The notes under the pieces were generated by a model that was not told the DNA's origin, made no database searches, and was given only the letters and a program-made list of their open reading frames with translations. Made by a program: the position numbers and the translations under genes. DNA of 20,000 nucleotides, from IMG/VR virus record IMGVR_UViG_3300050581_000203. One strand, written 5' to 3'. Below are positions 3 to 12,907 of this stretch, piece after piece; within the stretch, counting starts at the first letter, position 1; each line of letters opens with the position of its first letter. The DNA comes from an uncultured virus (IMG/VR IMGVR_UViG_3300050581_000203). Taxonomy: Duplodnaviria; Heunggongvirae; Uroviricota; Caudoviricetes.

Positions 3-953
3 AACGCCGCATGGGTCACCCAGGCCTTCGAGCGCTACGCGATGGGGCAGGCCAGCGACATGGACATCGCGCGTTGGCTGAACAACCACGGCGTGCGCAC
101 GTCCTATGGGCGCCCATTTAGCAAAGATACCGTGCGCGTCATGTTGAAGAACAAGTTCTACGCCGGCTTCGTGGCCTATCGCGGCCTGAGCAACGAGTGG
201 ACTGAGGACGGCCATCGCAAGCGTAACCCGCGCTCCAAGACGATCTGGACGCGCGGGGCGCATCAGCCCATCGTCAGCGAGGAACTCTACGAGCGCTGCC
301 AGGCGATGCGCCGCGACCAGGCCAAGCGCCAGGTGGGCCGGCGTCCGGCCGAGAAGCACGTCTATCTCCTCAATGGGCTGGCCATTTGCGCTAAGTGCGG
401 CAAGAAGCTCGGTTGTTCGACCGGTAGCGGCAACACAAAAGAGAACTATCGCTGCAAAAGCCGCGAACGCGGGATCGAATGCTCGGCGCGCCAGAGCTAC
501 GTCCAACAGGCGAAGCTTGTTTCCTACATCGATGACATGATCGAGCAGCTCCAGTTGTCGGAGGAAATTATCGACAAGGCGGTCGAACTGTCGCAATCCG
601 AAGAGACGGCCCACGCTTCCGAGAAACGCCACGCCGAACTGAACGCAGAGCTGCGTCGCCTGAGCGTCATGTTTCAGAAGGGTGGGGTGAATGAGGACTA
701 TTACGACGCCGAGTTGAAGCGCATTCAAGCCGAAATCGCGGCGCTGGCGCCGGTCGAACCCCGCGACATCAAGCGAGCGGCGCAAATCATCGACGGGCTC
801 TACGACGCCTGGAAAGTCATGAGTAACGAAGAGAAAAGCGCCACGCTCCACACGCTTTTGTCGGGGGTCGTGGTGGACGTCGACGCCGGGGCTGTTGTAG
901 AATGGCAGCCACGGCGCGAGTTCGCGCAGCTTTTTGCGGCGATTCGGCTATGA
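3..953 (+). CDS. Large serine recombinase (recombinase + zinc-ribbon domains), 5'-truncated by the window edge
   Basis: The frame is open from position 3 (NAAWVTQAFERYAMG). Motifs IARWLN..G.RT, FSKDTVRVMLKNKFYAG, GAHQPIVSEELYERCQ, YLLNGLAICAKCG and YRC..C. Clear paralog of the 817-2517 LSR. Confidence 0.93.
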   Translation, partial: NAAWVTQAFERYAMGQASDMDIARWLNNHGVRTSYGRPFSKDTVRVMLKNKFYAGFVAYRGLSNEWTEDGHRKRNPRSKTIWTRGAHQPIVSEELYERCQAMRRDQAKRQVGRRPAEKHVYLLNGLAICAKCGKKLGCSTGSGNTKENYRCKSRERGIECSARQSYVQQAKLVSYIDDMIEQLQLSEEIIDKAVELSQSEETAHASEKRHAELNAELRRLSVMFQKGGVNEDYYDAELKRIQAEIAALAPVEPRDIKRAAQIIDGLYDAWKVMSNEEKSATLHTLLSGVVVDVDAGAVVEWQPRREFAQLFAAIRL

Positions 954-2517
954 GAACCTTAAAACTCTCCCCAATTTCGGAAATTTCCCCCAGTAGATAT
1001 AGGAGAATGCAACGCCCGTCGCGTCCGCTAATTGCTTTATCACTGAATGCCGCCACACACAGGGCGGCATATTCTTTTTTCGGCATAAGGCCAACGATCC
1101 TCCTGGTGTCCAAATCCACCTCCACTTGCTCGAAGATACAGCCCACGATGTCGGCTTGCTCTTCCGGCGTTGCGTTCTGCCACAAGCGCGCCATGTCACC
1201 CAACGCCTCAATCGCGGCTTGCGTGTCCGTGTGATGCACCGGCATTGCCAGGCGCGCCAACTCGCTCTTGATGCGTTTCGTCTCAGCGTCGTAGTAGTCA
1301 TCGGCCAGGTTGCCCGCCTGGTACATGCGGTTCACCCGCTGTAACTCGGCCTCCAACCTGCCCCGCTGCTTTTCAATCGCCGCCGTGGGGTCATCGGCTG
1401 TAATCAACGCGGTCGCCTGGGCCTTGATGTCATCGGGCAGTTGTAAGCGGGCCATGATGTGCGCCAGGTCATCCAGCAAAACATTCTCCTGGATCACGCG
1501 GTACGTCGCTCCGCACTGGGTGCCCCGCTCTTTGGCCGTGCAACGGTAATACTTGACGCCGGCGTTCATCGTAAGCGCCCTCAACGGCCCGCCACAGTGT
1601 GCGCAGTGGGCCACGCGGGAAAGTAGATAAACGCGGCTCTGTGCTGGTTTGCGCCCGGCATAGCTATGCCCTCGCGCTGCGCGTATTGCTTGGCACTTCT
1701 CGAACAATTCACGGCTGATAAGCGGCTCATGTACGCCTGGAATTACTTTCGTTTCGCGCTTGCTGCGGCGCATCCGCTCCCGATGTTCGTTCTCACGATC
1801 CACAAGCCCACGGTAGCGCACATCGCCGCAGTAAAACGGATTCATGAGCATGGCGCGTACCGTGTCTTTGCTGAATGGCCGGCTGCCCCATGTGCCGCGT
1901 GTTACCTTGCCCTGGGCGTTAAGCCACTCGGCAATCTGCAAGTCACTGTAGTCGCCGGTCGCGTATCGCTCGAACATCTCGCGCGCCGTGTCCGCCTCAG
2001 CGTCCGGCACGTCGTGGCCGCTGGCGTCCCTGGTGTAGCCGAATGCCGGTATCGTGGCATTGCTAAGCCCCTTGCGTGCCCTGCCTAGCTTGCCCTTCGT
2101 CGTCTCGCCGATCAGGTTGCGCCGGTACATGCGCGCAAAGGCAAGCAACAACGTCAGCATGACTTCGCCCATCGGCGTGCTGAAATCAAAATCCTCGGTT
2201 GCGGAGATGAACGCCACGCCGTAACGTGCCAGGCCCTTGAGCACGGTCAACCCATCCACCACATCGCGGCTGAGTCTATCCAGCTTGTGAGTCACGATGA
2301 TTGCGAAGCGTCCGGCCTCCGCATCGGCGATCATGGCCTGGAACTGTTCGCGGTCGGTCACGTTCTTTGCGCTTTCGACTTCCGTGTACTCGGCCTCAAC
2401 CGCAAAGTCACGCCGCTTGCAAAACTCGCGGCACTGGTAAAGCTGTTCATCCAGCGAGTGCCCATCGCGCTGTTCTTCGCTACTCACCCGCACGTAAATT
2501 GCTGCCCGCTTAGGCAT
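817..2517 (-). CDS. Large serine integrase of element 1 (reads through the att core)
   Basis: Likely start MPKRAAIYVRVSSEEQ (catalytic Ser; RBS GAGGAAGG). Motifs HKLDRLSR, AFGY, GVHEPLISRELF, AHCAHCG and YYRC. The C-terminal SGRDG is encoded by the att core. Confidence 0.95.
   Translation of the reverse strand: MPKRAAIYVRVSSEEQRDGHSLDEQLYQCREFCKRRDFAVEAEYTEVESAKNVTDREQFQAMIADAEAGRFAIIVTHKLDRLSRDVVDGLTVLKGLARYGVAFISATEDFDFSTPMGEVMLTLLLAFARMYRRNLIGETTKGKLGRARKGLSNATIPAFGYTRDASGHDVPDAEADTAREMFERYATGDYSDLQIAEWLNAQGKVTRGTWGSRPFSKDTVRAMLMNPFYCGDVRYRGLVDRENEHRERMRRSKRETKVIPGVHEPLISRELFEKCQAIRAARGHSYAGRKPAQSRVYLLSRVAHCAHCGGPLRALTMNAGVKYYRCTAKERGTQCGATYRVIQENVLLDDLAHIMARLQLPDDIKAQATALITADDPTAAIEKQRGRLEAELQRVNRMYQAGNLADDYYDAETKRIKSELARLAMPVHHTDTQAAIEALGDMARLWQNATPEEQADIVGCIFEQVEVDLDTRRIVGLMPKKEYAALCVAAFSDKAISGRDGRCILLYLLGEISEIGESFKVLIAESPQKAARTRAVAAILQQPRRRRPPRPPTKACGAWRFSLRYS
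1015..1028 (+). repeat. att core (junction element 0 / element 1), tRNA-Asp 3'-end-like
   Basis: CCCGTCGCGTCCGC is identical at 10086-10099. It parses as T-stem 3' strand CCCGT + acceptor strand CGCGTCC + discriminator G. Confidence 0.85.
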
Positions 2518-2761
2518 TGTTCCCTTCCTCGGTTGCTGGCACATCAGCCCCAGGTAGAAATCGCGTTGTGCCAGCACTCGTTTCAACGTGGACATTGGGC
2601 AGTGCGAGCCACAGGGCACCCTCGTGATTCATTGCATGTACTGCCAACCCCGCGTGCTGGCAGTACATGATTGCAGATTCCAAAATCTCAAGCGCCTCGA
2701 CGGGCGTGGTTGGCTTTAGTTTGGGCTTTCGCCCGCCGTCGCTTCCGTTTGTTTTGCTCAT
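2510..2761 (-). CDS. Small hypothetical protein overlapping the integrase start (possible directionality factor)
   Basis: ATG at 2761 preceded by AAAGGA; 83 aa; overlaps the LSR ATG by 8 nt. Function is inferred from position only. Confidence 0.6.
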   Translation of the reverse strand: MSKTNGSDGGRKPKLKPTTPVEALEILESAIMYCQHAGLAVHAMNHEGALWLALPNVHVETSAGTTRFLPGADVPATEEGNNA

Positions 2762-3111
2762 ACGCTCGTTTCCTTTCGTCACTCAACAGCGCGAACCGGC
2801 CACCGTAACGCGATTGCCGCCCTGTGTGCGCACCCTTGCGCCACTGCCAGAATTTGCCGCGTCGCGTAACTTCAATGCGCCATGTGCCAGCAATGGGCGT
2901 GAGTGCTGGCACATGCACAACATCGAGTGCTGGCACATGTGCGGAAAAGTCTTGAATTTCCGGCGTTTCAGCGTGATAGGCAAGTGCTGGCACATAGGCG
3001 ATTAAACTTCGGCTTTTGGGTCATCCCCAGCCTTGCGCCCATTGCGTGCCGGGCGTGCTGGCACATGTTCGGCCATTGCTGGCACATCGTCATCGTTCTG
3101 TGCTGGCACAT
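2534..3111. repeat. Dispersed 11-bp motif TGCTGGCACAT, both orientations
   Basis: Perfect + copies start at 2534, 2904, 2928, 2985, 3056, 3077 and 3101. A perfect - copy lies at 2882-2892, a 10/11 - copy at 2566-2576 and a partial copy at 2655. Confidence 0.92.
2688..2993 (-). CDS. Small basic hypothetical protein, possibly nucleic-acid binding
   Basis: WRIEVTRRGKFWQWRKG...RYGG plus a K/R-rich tail. It fills the gap in a tightly packed - strand operon; the start is uncertain. Confidence 0.55.
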   Translation of the reverse strand: MPALAYHAETPEIQDFSAHVPALDVVHVPALTPIAGTWRIEVTRRGKFWQWRKGAHTGRQSRYGGRFALLSDERKRAYEQNKRKRRRAKAQTKANHARRGA

Positions 3112-3748
3112 GCGCGGACAATTGCGCATTGCCCCGCAAGCGCGCGTTGATCTCACGCGCGTTTCGCTGGCCGTAGGCTGTGAGTGCTGCGCGGCTTTCC
3201 TCTTCGCCCAACGCCACCATGAGCGATTGCATCTTGCCGATCTGCATGGTTTGTTGGATCTTCCGTTTCTGGCGCATGATCTGAATTGCCGGGTCTGCAT
3301 CGATGACGGCTTTCCAGAAGCCCACCACAAGCGGGATCACCAGCGGCACGCCCCAAAAGCTGTATAGCTTCAGGAAGTCGTTATTGCCGGCATCACTGCC
3401 CACCAGCGCGTTAAACTCAACGACGCAATTCAGCGCCACAATCGCAAACATCGCCCACCCGAAGATTTTGGCGAGGGTGCCCTGTGTGCCATGAGCGAAC
3501 CATACGAACGACCCGAGTAGGAACGTTGCCAGGCTGCCCTCGATTAGCACGGCAGGAATGAGCCCCAGCACTTTCATGGTGTCTGGAAATGCCCGGCTGT
3601 ACAACGAAAAACTCATGTAGCCCGTGAATAGCAGGCCCACGGCAATGAGGATTGCCGCCGCTGCCTGGACAAGCGCACGCTTGCCCTTGTGGTCGTCTTC
3701 CTCCATGAGTTCGGCCACACTCGAAACCCCAACTTGTCGATCTTCCAT
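3002..3748 (-). CDS. Membrane protein (about 4 TM helices) with helical C-terminal region
   Basis: Likely start MEDRQVG at 3748. Hydrophobic segments AILIAVGLLFTGYMSF, LGLIPAVLIEGSLATFLLGSFVWF, IFGWAMFAIVALNCVV and FWGVPLVIPLVVGFW. Confidence 0.8.
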   Translation of the reverse strand: MEDRQVGVSSVAELMEEDDHKGKRALVQAAAAILIAVGLLFTGYMSFSLYSRAFPDTMKVLGLIPAVLIEGSLATFLLGSFVWFAHGTQGTLAKIFGWAMFAIVALNCVVEFNALVGSDAGNNDFLKLYSFWGVPLVIPLVVGFWKAVIDADPAIQIMRQKRKIQQTMQIGKMQSLMVALGEEESRAALTAYGQRNAREINARLRGNAQLSAHVPAQNDDDVPAMAEHVPARPARNGRKAGDDPKAEV

Positions 3749-3796: not shown

Positions 3797-3851
3797 ACAA
3801 ACGACAAAGCGGGCAACCCGCCGCCTGGTGCATGGTGGCTGGCTGCCCGCT
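3797..3851 (-). terminator. Terminator/attenuator-like hairpin in the operon leader
   Basis: On the - strand, AGCGGGCAGCC...GGTTGCCCGCT is followed by TTGTCGTTTG. Same position and outer stem as 12363-12410. Confidence 0.5.
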
Positions 3852-3882
3852 CCCTGTACCCCGCACATGGGTACAATGCAGG

Positions 3883-3954
3883 TAGCCCACCGCTGCCTAA
3901 TCCAGCGTGCTGGGTCAGAGTCGCCCCGGTGCTGCGAACACCTGGGCGATTCGC
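3883..3954 (+). ncRNA. Candidate structured small RNA, copy 1
   Basis: Hairpin CGCTG-CCTAATC-CAGCG, linker TGGGTCA and 14-bp stem GAGTCGCCCCGGTG-CTGCGAA-CACCTGGGCGATTC. Homologous covarying copy at 12428-12499. Confidence 0.65.
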
Positions 3955-3991
3955 ATATTACGGAACCGATCAAAATCCCGTACAACGCGGG

Positions 3992-4020
3992 ATGCTACCG
4001 CCGCAAGTTGCCAATGTCAA
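3992..4020 (-). promoter_or_regulatory. Sigma70-type promoter for the membrane-protein/integrase operon
   Basis: TTGACA (4020-4015), 17 nt, TAGCAT (3997-3992). The -35 contains the HTH gene's TGA. Confidence 0.75.
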
Positions 4021-4247
4021 TCCTCTTTCGCAGAATGTGGGCCGAATCGCTTATCCTTTCGCGCTGTTTTCTGGTGCGCTCTCAGGTAAGCCAATAGCGA
4101 TTTCTTATCGACCATCCAGACGTTCGCAAACTTCCGGCCCGCGATCATGCCGAAGCGCAGTAGCTCGCGCAGGTGGTCATCGTTGTAGCCGGTCAGTTCG
4201 ATTGCATCGCGCAGGGTAATCCAGGTAGTTGTTTTTGCCTTTGCCAT
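4017..4247 (-). CDS. Excisionase-like HTH (HTH_17/MerR-like) DNA-binding protein
   Basis: WITLRDAIELTGYNDDHLRELLRFGMIAGRKFANVWMVDKKSLLAY; homologous to 12557-12772. TACAAT lies 7 nt before the ATG. Confidence 0.85.
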   Translation of the reverse strand: MAKAKTTTWITLRDAIELTGYNDDHLRELLRFGMIAGRKFANVWMVDKKSLLAYLRAHQKTARKDKRFGPHSAKED

Positions 4248-4380
4248 GCCGCTGATTGTAGCGTGAATATCCCACAACTGTAGGGATACCCTGTTACAGG
4301 TGTTATATGCCCAATTCACGGCTGCCATTTTTTGCCGCGCTCAGCACCGACCAGGCACCCCATAAAAAGGCCCCTGGCGT

Positions 4381-7087: not shown

Positions 7088-7166
7088 GGTTGTTTTAGGT
7101 TGTTTTGGGTTGTTTTTGCTAAGTGCCTAAAAAGCGGAAAAACAACCAATAACAACCAATAACAAC
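7088..7166. other. Candidate replication origin (inverted iterons)
   Basis: GGTTGTTTT at 7088, 7098 and 7108, and inverted AACAAC at 7141, 7151 and 7161 (10-bp period). Intergenic between helicase and primase. Confidence 0.75.
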
Positions 7167-7170
7167 TACA

Positions 7171-10004: not shown

Positions 10005-11738
10005 TCAGGCGACGATCCGGCCCCAATGGGGCGGCTGTGCCCAAACTATCCCCCGTAGGTCAATATGCCAATTGCTAAGCCCATCCCCGTCGCGTCCGCC
10101 TGAGACGTCTAACCGCTCAGTGATTTTAGAATCCTGAGCGGTTATTTCGTTTTCCAGCACAAAACTGTAGTCCCGCTCCACCATCCCCGTCTGTCGAAAC
10201 AGGGGCACAAACTCGGCATATGGCTTGACACCCACGATTCGCTTCTCGTCTGTATCTACATAGACCGCTTCAAACATCTCTTTGAGCATGGCGTGGCGAT
10301 GCGCTTTGTCAGCTTTCGCCCACGCCGATCCAAAGGCCACCACCTGCTCCCCTGTCTCCAGCAAGTGATGAGTGTCTGGTACCACAAGACTGTTTATCTC
10401 CCGGATCAACTTCTGCGCTCTCTTTTCGTAAGCCGGAACGTCGGATTCCTCGATCAGCCCCTGCTCAAATTGGTAGTTGAGCCGACGCAGCTGACCACGT
10501 AAGTCATTGCGCCGTTTTTCCAGGTTCACCACCTCAGTGTCACTTGCGACCAGCTCATTGATACGTGTACGCCAATCACCCGGCATACTCAAGGCCGCCA
10601 TGTACTGATCCATTTGAGGTGTCAACAGGTCTTCGCGCACCTGTTGCCGTGAAGCATCACATGGCTCATCCCGCAACCATGAAGCACAACGATAGTAGTG
10701 ATGATGTTGCCCGCACTGACTCTGAATACTGCGTAAAGGCTTCCCACAACTCGCACAATGTGCTATCCCCTGCCCCAATAGGTACACATGAGACGCTTGA
10801 GGCGTTAACAATCGCCCAGGGTTATAGCGCTTAATCCGGGCTGCCATCGCACGGTCTGCCAGCTCTTGGTCAATGATCGCTTCATGTGTTCCCTGGCGCA
10901 CCTGAAAGTCACGCAGGCGTTCTGCTTTGGTCCGCTCTTTCACTCCCACATAGGGAGTATTACCCAGATAGAACTGCACTGCCTCCCGGTCAAATAACCC
11001 GGCAACAGAATCCTTAGTCCAGCCACGCCGGAGCGACAGGTCAGTATCAGGTCCAGCCTTAGCTTTGGAACTGGATATCAGGCGGTAGGTGCGTGACCCG
11101 ACACGATTGAGTTCATCTGCGACGTCCTGGTCTATCTTGCCAGCCGAACACATTTGGTATGCAAATTGCACAAAATGTGCGTCTGCATTTGGCACAGGCT
11201 TATATAGTTTCTTCACCTTGCCATTCTTGATTTCCTCTCCGACTTCAGTCTTCGAGTAGCCAAAGCGCAAATCCCCATTCCAATAACCCGCTTCAAAGCG
11301 AGCCACCTTGCCTTTCGTCGTTTCGGCACTCAGGTTTTGCAGATACCATTCGGCGAAGAAGGCCAGCATGACCAGCATCATCCGCCCGGAGGGTGAGGTG
11401 AAGTCAATCGACTCTGCTGCGCTGGCAAAGGTCACATTGCATTTCTGCAACTCATCCAGCGTCAACAAAACGTCCACCAGGCTGCGCGAAAATCGATCCA
11501 ACTTGTGACACACCACCACATCAAACTGGCCTTCACGTGCATCAGCCAACATCTGTTGGAAGGCTGGACGATGAACCGTCTTGCCACTCCAGGCCTCATC
11601 AACATAGGGCTTACCGTTGATCGCCCAATCAGGACGAGCGGCGATGAAGTTTCGACATGCTTTATCCTGGGCTTCAATACTCCAGCCTTCGGATTGTTCG
11701 TCACTCGAATACCGGTAATAACATCTCACTCTAGTCAT
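10005..11738 (-). CDS. Large serine integrase of element 2 (reads through the att core)
   Basis: RCYYRYSSDEQ catalytic motif, HKLDRFSR, FGY, GTHEAIID, IAHCASCG and YYRC. GRDG is encoded by the att core. Confidence 0.95.
   Translation of the reverse strand: MTRVRCYYRYSSDEQSEGWSIEAQDKACRNFIAARPDWAINGKPYVDEAWSGKTVHRPAFQQMLADAREGQFDVVVCHKLDRFSRSLVDVLLTLDELQKCNVTFASAAESIDFTSPSGRMMLVMLAFFAEWYLQNLSAETTKGKVARFEAGYWNGDLRFGYSKTEVGEEIKNGKVKKLYKPVPNADAHFVQFAYQMCSAGKIDQDVADELNRVGSRTYRLISSSKAKAGPDTDLSLRRGWTKDSVAGLFDREAVQFYLGNTPYVGVKERTKAERLRDFQVRQGTHEAIIDQELADRAMAARIKRYNPGRLLTPQASHVYLLGQGIAHCASCGKPLRSIQSQCGQHHHYYRCASWLRDEPCDASRQQVREDLLTPQMDQYMAALSMPGDWRTRINELVASDTEVVNLEKRRNDLRGQLRRLNYQFEQGLIEESDVPAYEKRAQKLIREINSLVVPDTHHLLETGEQVVAFGSAWAKADKAHRHAMLKEMFEAVYVDTDEKRIVGVKPYAEFVPLFRQTGMVERDYSFVLENEITAQDSKITERLDVSGGRDGDGLSNWHIDLRGIVWAQPPHWGRIVA
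10086..10099 (+). repeat. att core (junction element 1 / element 2)
   Basis: CCCGTCGCGTCCGC is identical to 1015-1028; base composition changes around this point. Confidence 0.85.
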
Positions 11739-11788
11739 GGTTTATTTTGTTTAAGGTGTTCATCTGCATCCGTTTAGGGCCGTGCATG

Positions 11789-11971
11789 TCAACGAGATTG
11801 CCGCTCCACCTCCGCGATGATTGCCAGCAGTCGCTCAATGCGCGGTGCGAGTACAGGACGTCGTGGCAATTTGGGATGTAGCGAGTCACGGTGCCCAGCC
11901 TGGTTCCCTGCTCTATGTAAGAGCGGTGAGCCGGTCAACTGCTTACTGGTCGTGTCTTCAAAATGCGTCAT
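11789..11971 (-). CDS. Small hypothetical protein upstream of the integrase (possible directionality factor)
   Basis: 60 aa with amphipathic C-terminal helix RIERLLAIIAEVERQ. Function is inferred from position only. Confidence 0.45.
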   Translation of the reverse strand: MTHFEDTTSKQLTGSPLLHRAGNQAGHRDSLHPKLPRRPVLAPRIERLLAIIAEVERQSR

Positions 11972-12078: not shown

Positions 12079-12303
12079 TTAGGAGTCCCGTCGCACAAGG
12101 TCTACCCGGCAATCACGGGTATCCTCAAGCCGCATATAGCTTTTGCGTCCGAGGACCCGGCGGCGCTGTTTACCTGACAACTTGAGCGTCTTGCAAATGT
12201 CGTGAAGCAGATGTGACAAGGGAGCCTCAATCTCATCGGCGCTTGTCTCGGCTTCGCGTTCGCACTGCTGGCGGAACTTGCGGAGTTTACTTGCGGATTT
12301 CAT
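12079..12303 (-). CDS. Small basic hypothetical protein
   Basis: ATG at 12303 with GAGAGGTG RBS; 74 aa; first gene after the structured leader. Confidence 0.65.
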   Translation of the reverse strand: MKSASKLRKFRQQCEREAETSADEIEAPLSHLLHDICKTLKLSGKQRRRVLGRKSYMRLEDTRDCRVDLVRRDS

Positions 12304-12362
12304 CTGACCACCTCTCAACACTAACTTGCTGGCTTTACCAAACTTGCCCCGCTAAAGCCAAC

Positions 12363-12410
12363 AAAAAAACGGGCGACCCTTGCCGGTGGTGAAAGCAAGG
12401 ACTGCCCGCT
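12363..12410 (-). terminator. Intrinsic terminator/attenuator in the operon leader
   Basis: On the - strand, GCGGGCAGTCCTTGC...GCAAGGGTCGCCCG is followed by T7. Confidence 0.7.
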
Positions 12411-12427
12411 TCAAAGTAAAATGCGGT

Positions 12428-12499
12428 TAGCCTTGCCGATGCCCTAAACATCGGTTGGGTCAGGGTTGTGTGGGTGCTGCTAACACCTATACGACCCGC
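12428..12499 (+). ncRNA. Candidate structured small RNA, copy 2
   Basis: Hairpin CCGATG-CCCTAAA-CATCGG, linker TGGGTCA and 14-bp stem GGGTTGTGTGGGTG-CTGCTAA-CACCTATACGACCC (three G-U pairs on the + strand). Confidence 0.65.
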
Positions 12500-12531
12500 T
12501 TTATAGCATTTATATGCTAACTATACTTAGT

Positions 12532-12560
12532 ATATTATACTAGCAGTCTACTCATGTCAA
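12532..12560 (-). promoter_or_regulatory. Sigma70-type promoter for the integrase operon of element 2
   Basis: TTGACA (12560-12555, containing the HTH stop codon), 17 nt, TAATAT; TATAAT also present at 15-nt spacing. Confidence 0.7.
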
Positions 12561-12772
12561 GTGGTTCGTTTGCCTTTTGCTCCATGCCGTCGATCTTCTG
12601 ACTTAGCTTTTGCCGCTTGACTGGCATACTCCAGCAAGTCTCCCCTATCAACCCAATATTGACCACCCTTCTTCTCAGCCTTGATTCTTTTCTGCCGCAA
12701 CAACAAAAGCAAGTGTGCAACACTGTAGCCGGTAAGTTGGCTTGCCTCTTCAGTAGTGATCCAGTCAACCAT
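12557..12772 (-). CDS. Excisionase-like HTH (HTH_17) DNA-binding protein
   Basis: MVDWITTEEASQLTGYSVAHLLLLLRQKRIKAEKKGGQYWVDRGDLLEY; homolog of 4017-4247. Confidence 0.85.
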   Translation of the reverse strand: MVDWITTEEASQLTGYSVAHLLLLLRQKRIKAEKKGGQYWVDRGDLLEYASQAAKAKSEDRRHGAKGKRTT

Positions 12773-12907
12773 ATTTGGAATTGTAGCGTTAACCACACCT
12801 GTTTGCCATATTGGGTATTCGACCTAAGCGTGAACATTATGGGGTATAAAAACAAAAATGCCTTAACCCTGAACTTACGACAATGAAAAGAAAAGGAGTT
12901 CACGAAC

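Follow-up and report, generated by a model that had tools for sequence, protein, structure and literature searches.

Ahead of the large serine recombinase (LSR) operon of each of the two mobile elements in the window (the whole stretch of DNA that was analysed, 20,000 nt) lies a conserved structured segment that is related to the SymR antisense RNA of E. coli and folds best on the strand opposite the operon. We consider it probable that this segment belongs to a two-RNA switch, which would account for the entire arrangement. A sense promoter just behind a helix-turn-helix (HTH) gene would drive synthesis of a leader that runs into an intrinsic terminator, and a promoter on the opposite strand, with its -10 box between leader and terminator, would yield a SymR-like antisense RNA of approximately 75 nt. 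If the antisense RNA is absent, the last eight or so nucleotides of its target would pair with the 5′ arm of the terminator during synthesis of the leader; this antiterminator pairing would delay the terminator, and the small ORFs and the LSR gene would be transcribed. If the antisense RNA is present, the target would be masked, probably via a kiss between variable hairpin loops, the terminator would form and the operon would be off. The HTH protein is probably a second brake, acting at an inverted repeat over the sense start site. Such a switch may control excision of the elements.

Both cassettes consist, in this order, of the HTH gene, the structured segment, a GCGGGCA..GCCCG terminator, small ORFs and the LSR gene, and the features that an earlier note had described for them were found where it had placed them, save for the strand of the structured RNA. 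The recombinase genes are:

817..2514, minus strand: LSR1, large serine recombinase of element 1
10005..11738, minus strand: LSR2, large serine recombinase of element 2

Element 1 further encodes a tyrosine recombinase, an AAA_25 protein and a primase, and element 2 a coupling protein and a Replic_Relax protein. The same genome has a third cassette, on contig C25 and with an LSR of its own, and exactly three full RNA copies in all. A 14-bp sequence with exactly two occurrences in the genome (1015-1028 and 10086-10099, equivalent spots in the 3′ ends of LSR1 and LSR2) is probably an att-like core bounding an element 1 of about 9.1 kb that has integrated at the end of element 2; the contig yielded no tRNA or tmRNA. 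A 29-bp inverted repeat (7088-7167) with TTGTT/AACAA units lies between the genes for the primase and the AAA_25 protein and is a candidate for the origin of element 1. A third LSR (window 3-953, plus upstream sequence on C184) converges on LSR1 and ends a prophage-like region; it is the nearest tree row to LSR1, yet lacks the RNA cassette.

The structured RNA had earlier been placed behind the HTH gene and on its strand. The conserved, structured segment is indeed there, but its fold and its covariation are both better on the plus strand of the window, where we predict the following:

3884..3958 (3′ end approximate), plus strand: SymR-like antisense RNA 1, with 5′ AGCC, a small nested hairpin, a long 3′ hairpin and a degenerate U-run
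3872..3877, plus strand: -10 box (TACAAT) of antisense RNA 1, its position conserved in the sets found without the -10
12429..12503 (3′ end approximate), plus strand: SymR-like antisense RNA 2, with a 14-bp end hairpin and a short U-run
12417..12422, plus strand: -10 box (TAAAAT) of antisense RNA 2

The consensus fold of 21 copies has an energy of -30.6 kcal/mol opposite the HTH gene vs -21.1 kcal/mol on the HTH strand, and the pairs that are broken on the HTH strand are mostly A-C, which read as G-U on the opposite strand, an asymmetry that favours a location of the RNA opposite the HTH gene. In the opposite-strand fold 95% of cells pair, 17 of the 21 pairs show two-sided changes, and covariation exceeds that of all 500 shuffles and all slid registers, a margin inflated by the relatedness of the copies. 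Single-sequence folds prefer the same strand in 66 of 70 copies, which is partly an effect of composition. The predicted RNA is about 75 nt long, begins with AGCC 6 nt past a conserved TAnAAT box and closes with a long terminal hairpin. Its -10 is kept in 65 of 71 copies from the class, a count that is not independent because the model used (R1, see below) includes the -10; the -35 of this promoter is poor by eye. Taken together, the segment very probably encodes, opposite the HTH gene, a SymR-type RNA that is antisense in cis. At L112 and L121 (G082) the antisense -10 is lost or displaced, and the LSR of L121 is truncated.

The terminator might instead be switched, with no antisense RNA involved, by a structured leader that acts in cis on the HTH strand, either like a riboswitch or bound by a protein, since the sense strand also folds and bears both terminator and antiterminator. 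We regard this as highly improbable: the G-U vs A-C asymmetry favours the opposite strand, a reverse-strand -10 stands at fixed spacing in the listed matches that were found without it, and R1 matches symR, whose product is a proven antisense RNA. In Rfam scans, neither the window as a whole nor the two RNA regions could be assigned to a family; the only match, of 8 bits, was to the 3′ hairpin of BsrG, on the plus strand. A C4/CI-type immunity RNA and a riboswitch were also considered; neither is supported by any Rfam match.

Kinship of the antisense RNA to SymR was recognized in both directions. Model R1, which was built from 21 class copies only, matches E. coli symR across all 94 positions at 42.2 bits, and its -10 and +1 fall on those of symR; in the R1 genome scan 41 bits corresponds to an E value of about 6e-9 per genome, the symR locus having been picked with the hypothesis in mind. 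The Rfam symR model (RF01809) matches 4 of 20 homologous loci over its full length (positions 1-77), on the same strand and with 28-44 bits. Its threshold of 61 bits was not reached among these 20 loci (best score, 44.1), and the window's own RNA copies gave no RF01809 match. Judged by these scores, the RNA class in the window is akin to SymR but falls outside the family as Rfam defines it. It resembles E. coli symE/SymR (RF01809; PMC1891008) in size, in its three-helix fold and in its long 3′ hairpin; as in symR, the RNA 5′ end lies 6-7 nt after a TAnAAT box, which on the sense side is downstream of the target. According to PMC1891008, the symR -10 falls within the symE frame, where it reads CATTCT on the sense strand. 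In contrast to symE/SymR, no SymE was found with the class cassettes, whose target has neither start codon nor SD and is followed by a terminator. Of 65 class copies, one has an ATG where symE has its own, and the SymE family is absent from the 119, 64 and 31 proteins scanned.

In phage P22, Sar blocks translation of ant. The immI region arc-sar-ant (PMC2629481) is similar in having a small repressor gene followed by an antisense RNA whose promoter is in the downstream sequence, and RHH-type copies of our cassette end at the 3′ end of the RNA, exactly as P22 arc does. R1 scores a weak 9.1 bits (E 0.21) on P22 sar, in the right place and on the right strand, and this is its best match in 6.5 kb. 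The GenBank note on sar reads only "regulator of ant gene."

The GCGGGCA..GCCCG terminators reported earlier are present in both elements, and the leader includes in each case the target of the antisense 5′ end:

3798..3852, minus strand: intrinsic terminator of element 1
12362..12409, minus strand: intrinsic terminator of element 2
3884..3891, minus strand: antisense 5′-end target, which is the 5′ strand of the predicted antiterminator of element 1
12429..12437, minus strand: antisense 5′-end target, which is the 5′ strand of the predicted antiterminator of element 2

Of 65 copies, 60 have a terminator call no more than 125 nt away, some of these calls being mis-picks; for the arm tests (n=54) six doubtful loci were left out and two terminators were set by hand, and the p-values of these tests are overstated because the copies are related. 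In transcripts cut before the 3′ arm of the terminator, the real 5′ arm was captured better than shuffled arms in 41 of 54 (-6.4 vs -4.7 kcal/mol), and a copy's own arm gained more than swapped arms in 39 of 54 (-7.8 vs -5.75). The 5′ arm finds its partners most often in the final 8 nt of the antisense target (n=54). The antiterminator of element 2 (-20.4 kcal/mol) rivals its terminator (-18.2 kcal/mol); the corresponding values for element 1 are -31.3, extra hairpin included, and -21.9. A plain duplex test of own vs foreign terminator arms was not significant (p=0.23), and a criterion of four pairs failed to separate real arms (38 of 54) from shuffled (63%) or swapped (63%) ones. No antiterminator pairing was seen in the C25 copy.

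These results also bear on a reading in which the antisense RNA is real and the terminator constitutive, the RNA provoking decay of the leader or of HTH read-through mRNA once a duplex forms, or the two convergent polymerases colliding, and the LSR operon being expressed by leakage or from another promoter. The terminator does dominate the equilibrium fold regardless of the RNA: at full length it forms with a mean of 0.93 without and 0.98 with the antisense RNA, the values being 1.00 and 1.00 for element 1 and 0.53 and 0.93 for element 2. Antiterminator pairing is, moreover, weak or absent in some copies. A constitutive terminator is nevertheless rather unlikely, because the arm partners concentrate on the antisense 5′ target above the shuffled and swapped controls; as for duplex decay, in the case of SymR the levels of SymE were unchanged by loss of RNase III, according to PMC4147584. 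Since the terminator forms at equilibrium whether or not the antisense RNA is present, read-through must be kinetic, and kinetic attenuation of the pT181 kind is what we would expect, with reasonable though not high confidence, to be the action of the antisense RNA.

The antisense system of pIP501/Inc18 is a transcription attenuator like that of pT181. The logic proposed here resembles the pT181 attenuator, as set out in PMC3753616, in that an antisense RNA acts on a nascent leader to bring about terminator formation and that the interaction begins loop to loop. Unlike pT181, where a plasmid rep gene is controlled, our cassette fronts recombinase and transfer operons of integrated elements, for which the corresponding function is proposed; Rfam scans gave no match to the pT181 RNAs.

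The HTH genes and the promoters on either side of them are arranged as follows:

4017..4247, minus strand: HTH1, an HTH_17 protein of the excisionase family, MerR-like winged helix with a basic tail (family scan and model)
12557..12772, minus strand: HTH2, an HTH_17 protein of the TIGR01764 excisionase family (family scan)
4255..4260, minus strand: -10 box (TACAAT) of the HTH1 gene, 7 nt before the ATG, the start being predicted as leaderless from this spacing
12780..12785, minus strand: -10 box (TACAAT) of the HTH2 gene, also predicted as leaderless
3992..4020, minus strand: predicted sense promoter of element 1, TTGACA over the HTH stop, 17 nt, TAGCAT
12532..12560, minus strand: predicted sense promoter of element 2, TTGACA over the stop, with TATAAT at 15 nt or TAATAT at 17 nt
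3974..3994, no strand: inverted repeat from inside the sense -10 of element 1, operator candidate
12512..12535, no strand: inverted repeat from inside the sense -10 of element 2, operator candidate

The two HTH proteins are alike, as had been claimed (39% identical over 62 aa), and ACGCTACAAT is found at 4255-4264 and 12780-12789, each time 7 nt before the ATG and with no SD. Leaderless initiation is not a general trait of such genes: only a minority, 9 of 38 HTH cassettes, are leaderless by spacing, most of the others possess a -10 16-38 nt upstream together with an SD, and among the 38 ACGCTACAAT is confined to the two window copies. The fold model, built from a 22-row alignment led by HTH2, is a MerR-like winged helix; its nearest neighbours are CbpM, RacA, GlnR, Pukovnik Xis and BldC, none of them at E<=0.001. 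The likeness to Pukovnik Xis (4J2N), BldC, RacA and Tn916 Xis is one of family and fold (HTH_17/TIGR01764). Unlike excisionases and MerR-like proteins, the window HTH has an extra basic C-terminal tail and accompanies unrelated recombinases, and the latter argues against a recombinase-specific directionality factor. We propose that HTH1 represses the promoter downstream of its own gene. Relatives of the three HTHs of this genome are present in 52 of 401 genomes of the class, and the best loci share the downstream segment.

The overlap between the HTH stop codon and the sense promoter exists as had been noted, TTGACA spanning the TGA at 4015-4020 and 12555-12560 with a -10 located 17 nt away (TAGCAT and TAATAT, respectively); element 2 offers a second option, TATAAT at 15 nt. 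The occurrence of TTGAC at the stop is far above chance, being found in 25 of 38 cassettes vs 49 of 2390 long-frame stops in the genome. As a rule, however, the overlap does not give a usable -35, with TTGAC 15-18 nt from a -10 in only 13 of 38 cassettes. In 12 of the 38 this distance is 7-9 nt, about one helical turn too close for a -35; these comprise L001 (the C25 copy) and 11 others, and the -10 in question is TATAAT. L075 has TTGAC at both distances. Host promoter spacing has a genome-wide peak at 16-17 nt, with two cases at 7 nt and one at 8 nt; TTGACA 7-8 nt from the -10 was rejected as a general host promoter type since there is no such peak. The short-spaced TTGAC is possibly a protein site. 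A further TTGACA over a TGA stop, that of a 60-aa ORF, lies just before LSR2 (11787-11792), with no -10 at working distance. In 30 of 34 cassettes the inverted repeat that starts within the sense -10 beats shuffles; where the HTH is of another type, the repeat is weak or absent. It is our candidate for the operator of the HTH protein.

How closely the cassette is associated with recombinases was determined in genomes of the class. Of 26 RNA copies that come after an HTH gene of this type and have at least 3.5 kb of sequence downstream, 24 are followed by an LSR. In 151 class genomes there are 87 LSR domains, of which 30 are preceded by the RNA on the opposite strand and one has it in another geometry; a re-scan of 40 loci among the negatives added two RNAs, and contig ends are close to some negatives. 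Half of the RNA copies in these genomes (30 of 60) precede an LSR. In other copies the gene ahead of the RNA codes for an RHH, another HTH_17, an Hfq-like or a tyrosine-recombinase protein, and the operons headed by the RNA also include those of tyrosine integrases, FtsK and ParM-like proteins. Two tyrosine-integrase elements (L100 and L101) have an Hfq/Sm-fold gene directly upstream of the RNA.

The cassette had been thought to travel with a single LSR clade, an idea that we rejected on a quick, unfinished LSR tree of 65 rows, with seven partial rows left out. In this tree the HTH-plus-RNA label is clustered and needs 10 changes, at least six of which are forced by well-supported branches. 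The two window LSRs group with the neighbouring prophage LSR in a 20-row clade, and no RNA was detected in 18 of its rows. The changes on the tree and the varied neighbours indicate that the cassette has been exchanged between elements. What persists of the idea of a portable HTH, RNA and attenuator unit is therefore its portability, its use by different element types and, probably, the attenuator; the parts concerning the strand of the RNA, the leaderless start, the stop/-35 overlap and the one clade were mistaken or put too broadly.

Three of the ORFs between terminator and LSR are relevant here:

3002..3748, minus strand: first ORF behind terminator 1, 248 aa, with hydrophobic stretches and no Pfam family
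2510..2761, minus strand: small ORF of 83 aa that abuts LSR1 and has a homolog behind the L018 cassette
12079..12303, minus strand: 74-aa ORF behind terminator 2, of an unnamed family

There is no likeness between the small ORFs of the two elements, as the earlier note had stated, but two of them have family members behind other cassettes. The 74-aa ORF falls into an unnamed 15-member cluster of proteins of approximately 75-95 aa, encoded between terminator and LSR in many cassettes; it had no Pfam or NCBIfam match and no usable protein atlas match, and is a candidate directionality factor. Several repeats of the motif TGCTGGCACAT are distributed in both orientations over 2868-3121, across the 248-aa ORF and a 101-aa ORF, and are possibly binding sites.

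With R1, the RNA was detected in 32 of 151 class genomes and in 9 of 151 from the phylum. The hairpin loops are highly varied (61 types among 67), and 27 of the 67 loops examined start on the sense strand with YUNR, a kissing-loop motif. Such diversity, along with the presence of up to 7 and 10 copies per genome in two genome scans and the observation that the three copies of this genome cross-pair far worse than cognate pairs, would suit an RNA pair that is mainly trans-acting, in incompatibility or immunity against related elements, or whose product is the terminated sense RNA, with little effect on its own LSR. We find this distinctly unlikely, given the fixed place of the cassette ahead of recombinase and transfer operons and the fact that insulation among cis-acting switches would lead one to expect loop diversity equally.

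To look beyond the class, a DNA pattern of the RNA without the -10 was used, which fixes GGCT and leaves the AT of ATG and the SD free. It gave at least 120 matches in viral contigs and at least 120 in GTDB genomes, both being samples, and a few of the GTDB matches look like chance; protein-seeded searches of the viral contigs were weak, yielding three distant loci. Among the matches listed, 94 of 109 distinct viral and 101 of 119 GTDB sequences have TA 6-7 nt ahead of +1 (other positions, 0-11), and TAnnnT precedes +1 in 55 of 109 and 87 of 119, respectively, the -10 being no part of the pattern. The 109 viral matches listed have a start codon at the symE position in 98 cases, an SD in 91 and a terminator-like hairpin in 8. 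The GTDB matches listed derive from Acidobacteriota (57), Pseudomonadota (43), Chloroflexota (6), Actinomycetota (4), Planctomycetota (3) and others. The Chloroflexota form has lost the start codon and gained a terminator: absence of a start codon together with a strong terminator characterizes 6 of 6 Chloroflexota and 0 of 113 other GTDB matches listed. These six have the layout of the window, with an HTH-like ORF upstream in three, from which we infer that the genome of the window belongs to the Chloroflexota.

Most of the relatives that the pattern detected stand at the head of an ORF, as SymR does at symE. Among the listed viral matches, 22 of 64 ORFs scanned (those with long flanks, out of 94) are HNH, GIY-YIG or NUMOD3 endonuclease-like, one is DUF2924 (L157) and one ArdC; among 31 longer ORFs hand-picked from 81 listed GTDB matches, 15 are small serine resolvases. 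We lean, by a little, towards regarding SymR as one member of a plug-in antisense cassette, consisting of a hairpin, a hidden SD, a start codon and an internal reverse promoter, with which mobile elements across bacteria and phages would keep hazardous genes (homing endonucleases, resolvases and integrases, for instance) in check. In the Chloroflexota form the replacement of the start codon by a terminator would have made the cassette an attenuator, which may now guard about one-third of the LSRs in the class sample, its loops insulating co-resident elements from one another.

No description of SymR-like RNAs outside symE, or of the cassette, was found in the literature outside subscription journals, and the motif words had no match in six supplements of PMC10690425, which are a part of that source. 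SymR has been described as the antitoxin of one proteobacterial toxin. For the SymR-type RNA at recombinase operons, the antisense identity is well supported, and the attenuation step is proposed from sequence. Here the SymR fold and promoter layout lie ahead of mobile-element genes that are unrelated to one another, in phages as well as in several phyla, and the "antitoxin" may therefore be a general brake on mobile DNA. If the Chloroflexota form attenuates, it would be a natural case of one antisense RNA family passing from translational to transcriptional control, would afford a testable handle on the timing of element excision and would provide a large natural set of potentially orthogonal attenuators; those of synthetic biology are, according to PMC3753616, currently built from pT181 alone.

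Two further observations concern the translational form. At viral loci L153-L272 it heads many free-standing phage genes of the HNH/GIY-YIG homing-endonuclease-like type, and in 28 of the 109 viral matches listed the sense -10 is located 3 nt before the hairpin. At Acidobacteriota loci (e.g. L330, L336, L342, L366 and L392) the leader directly heads small serine resolvase genes.
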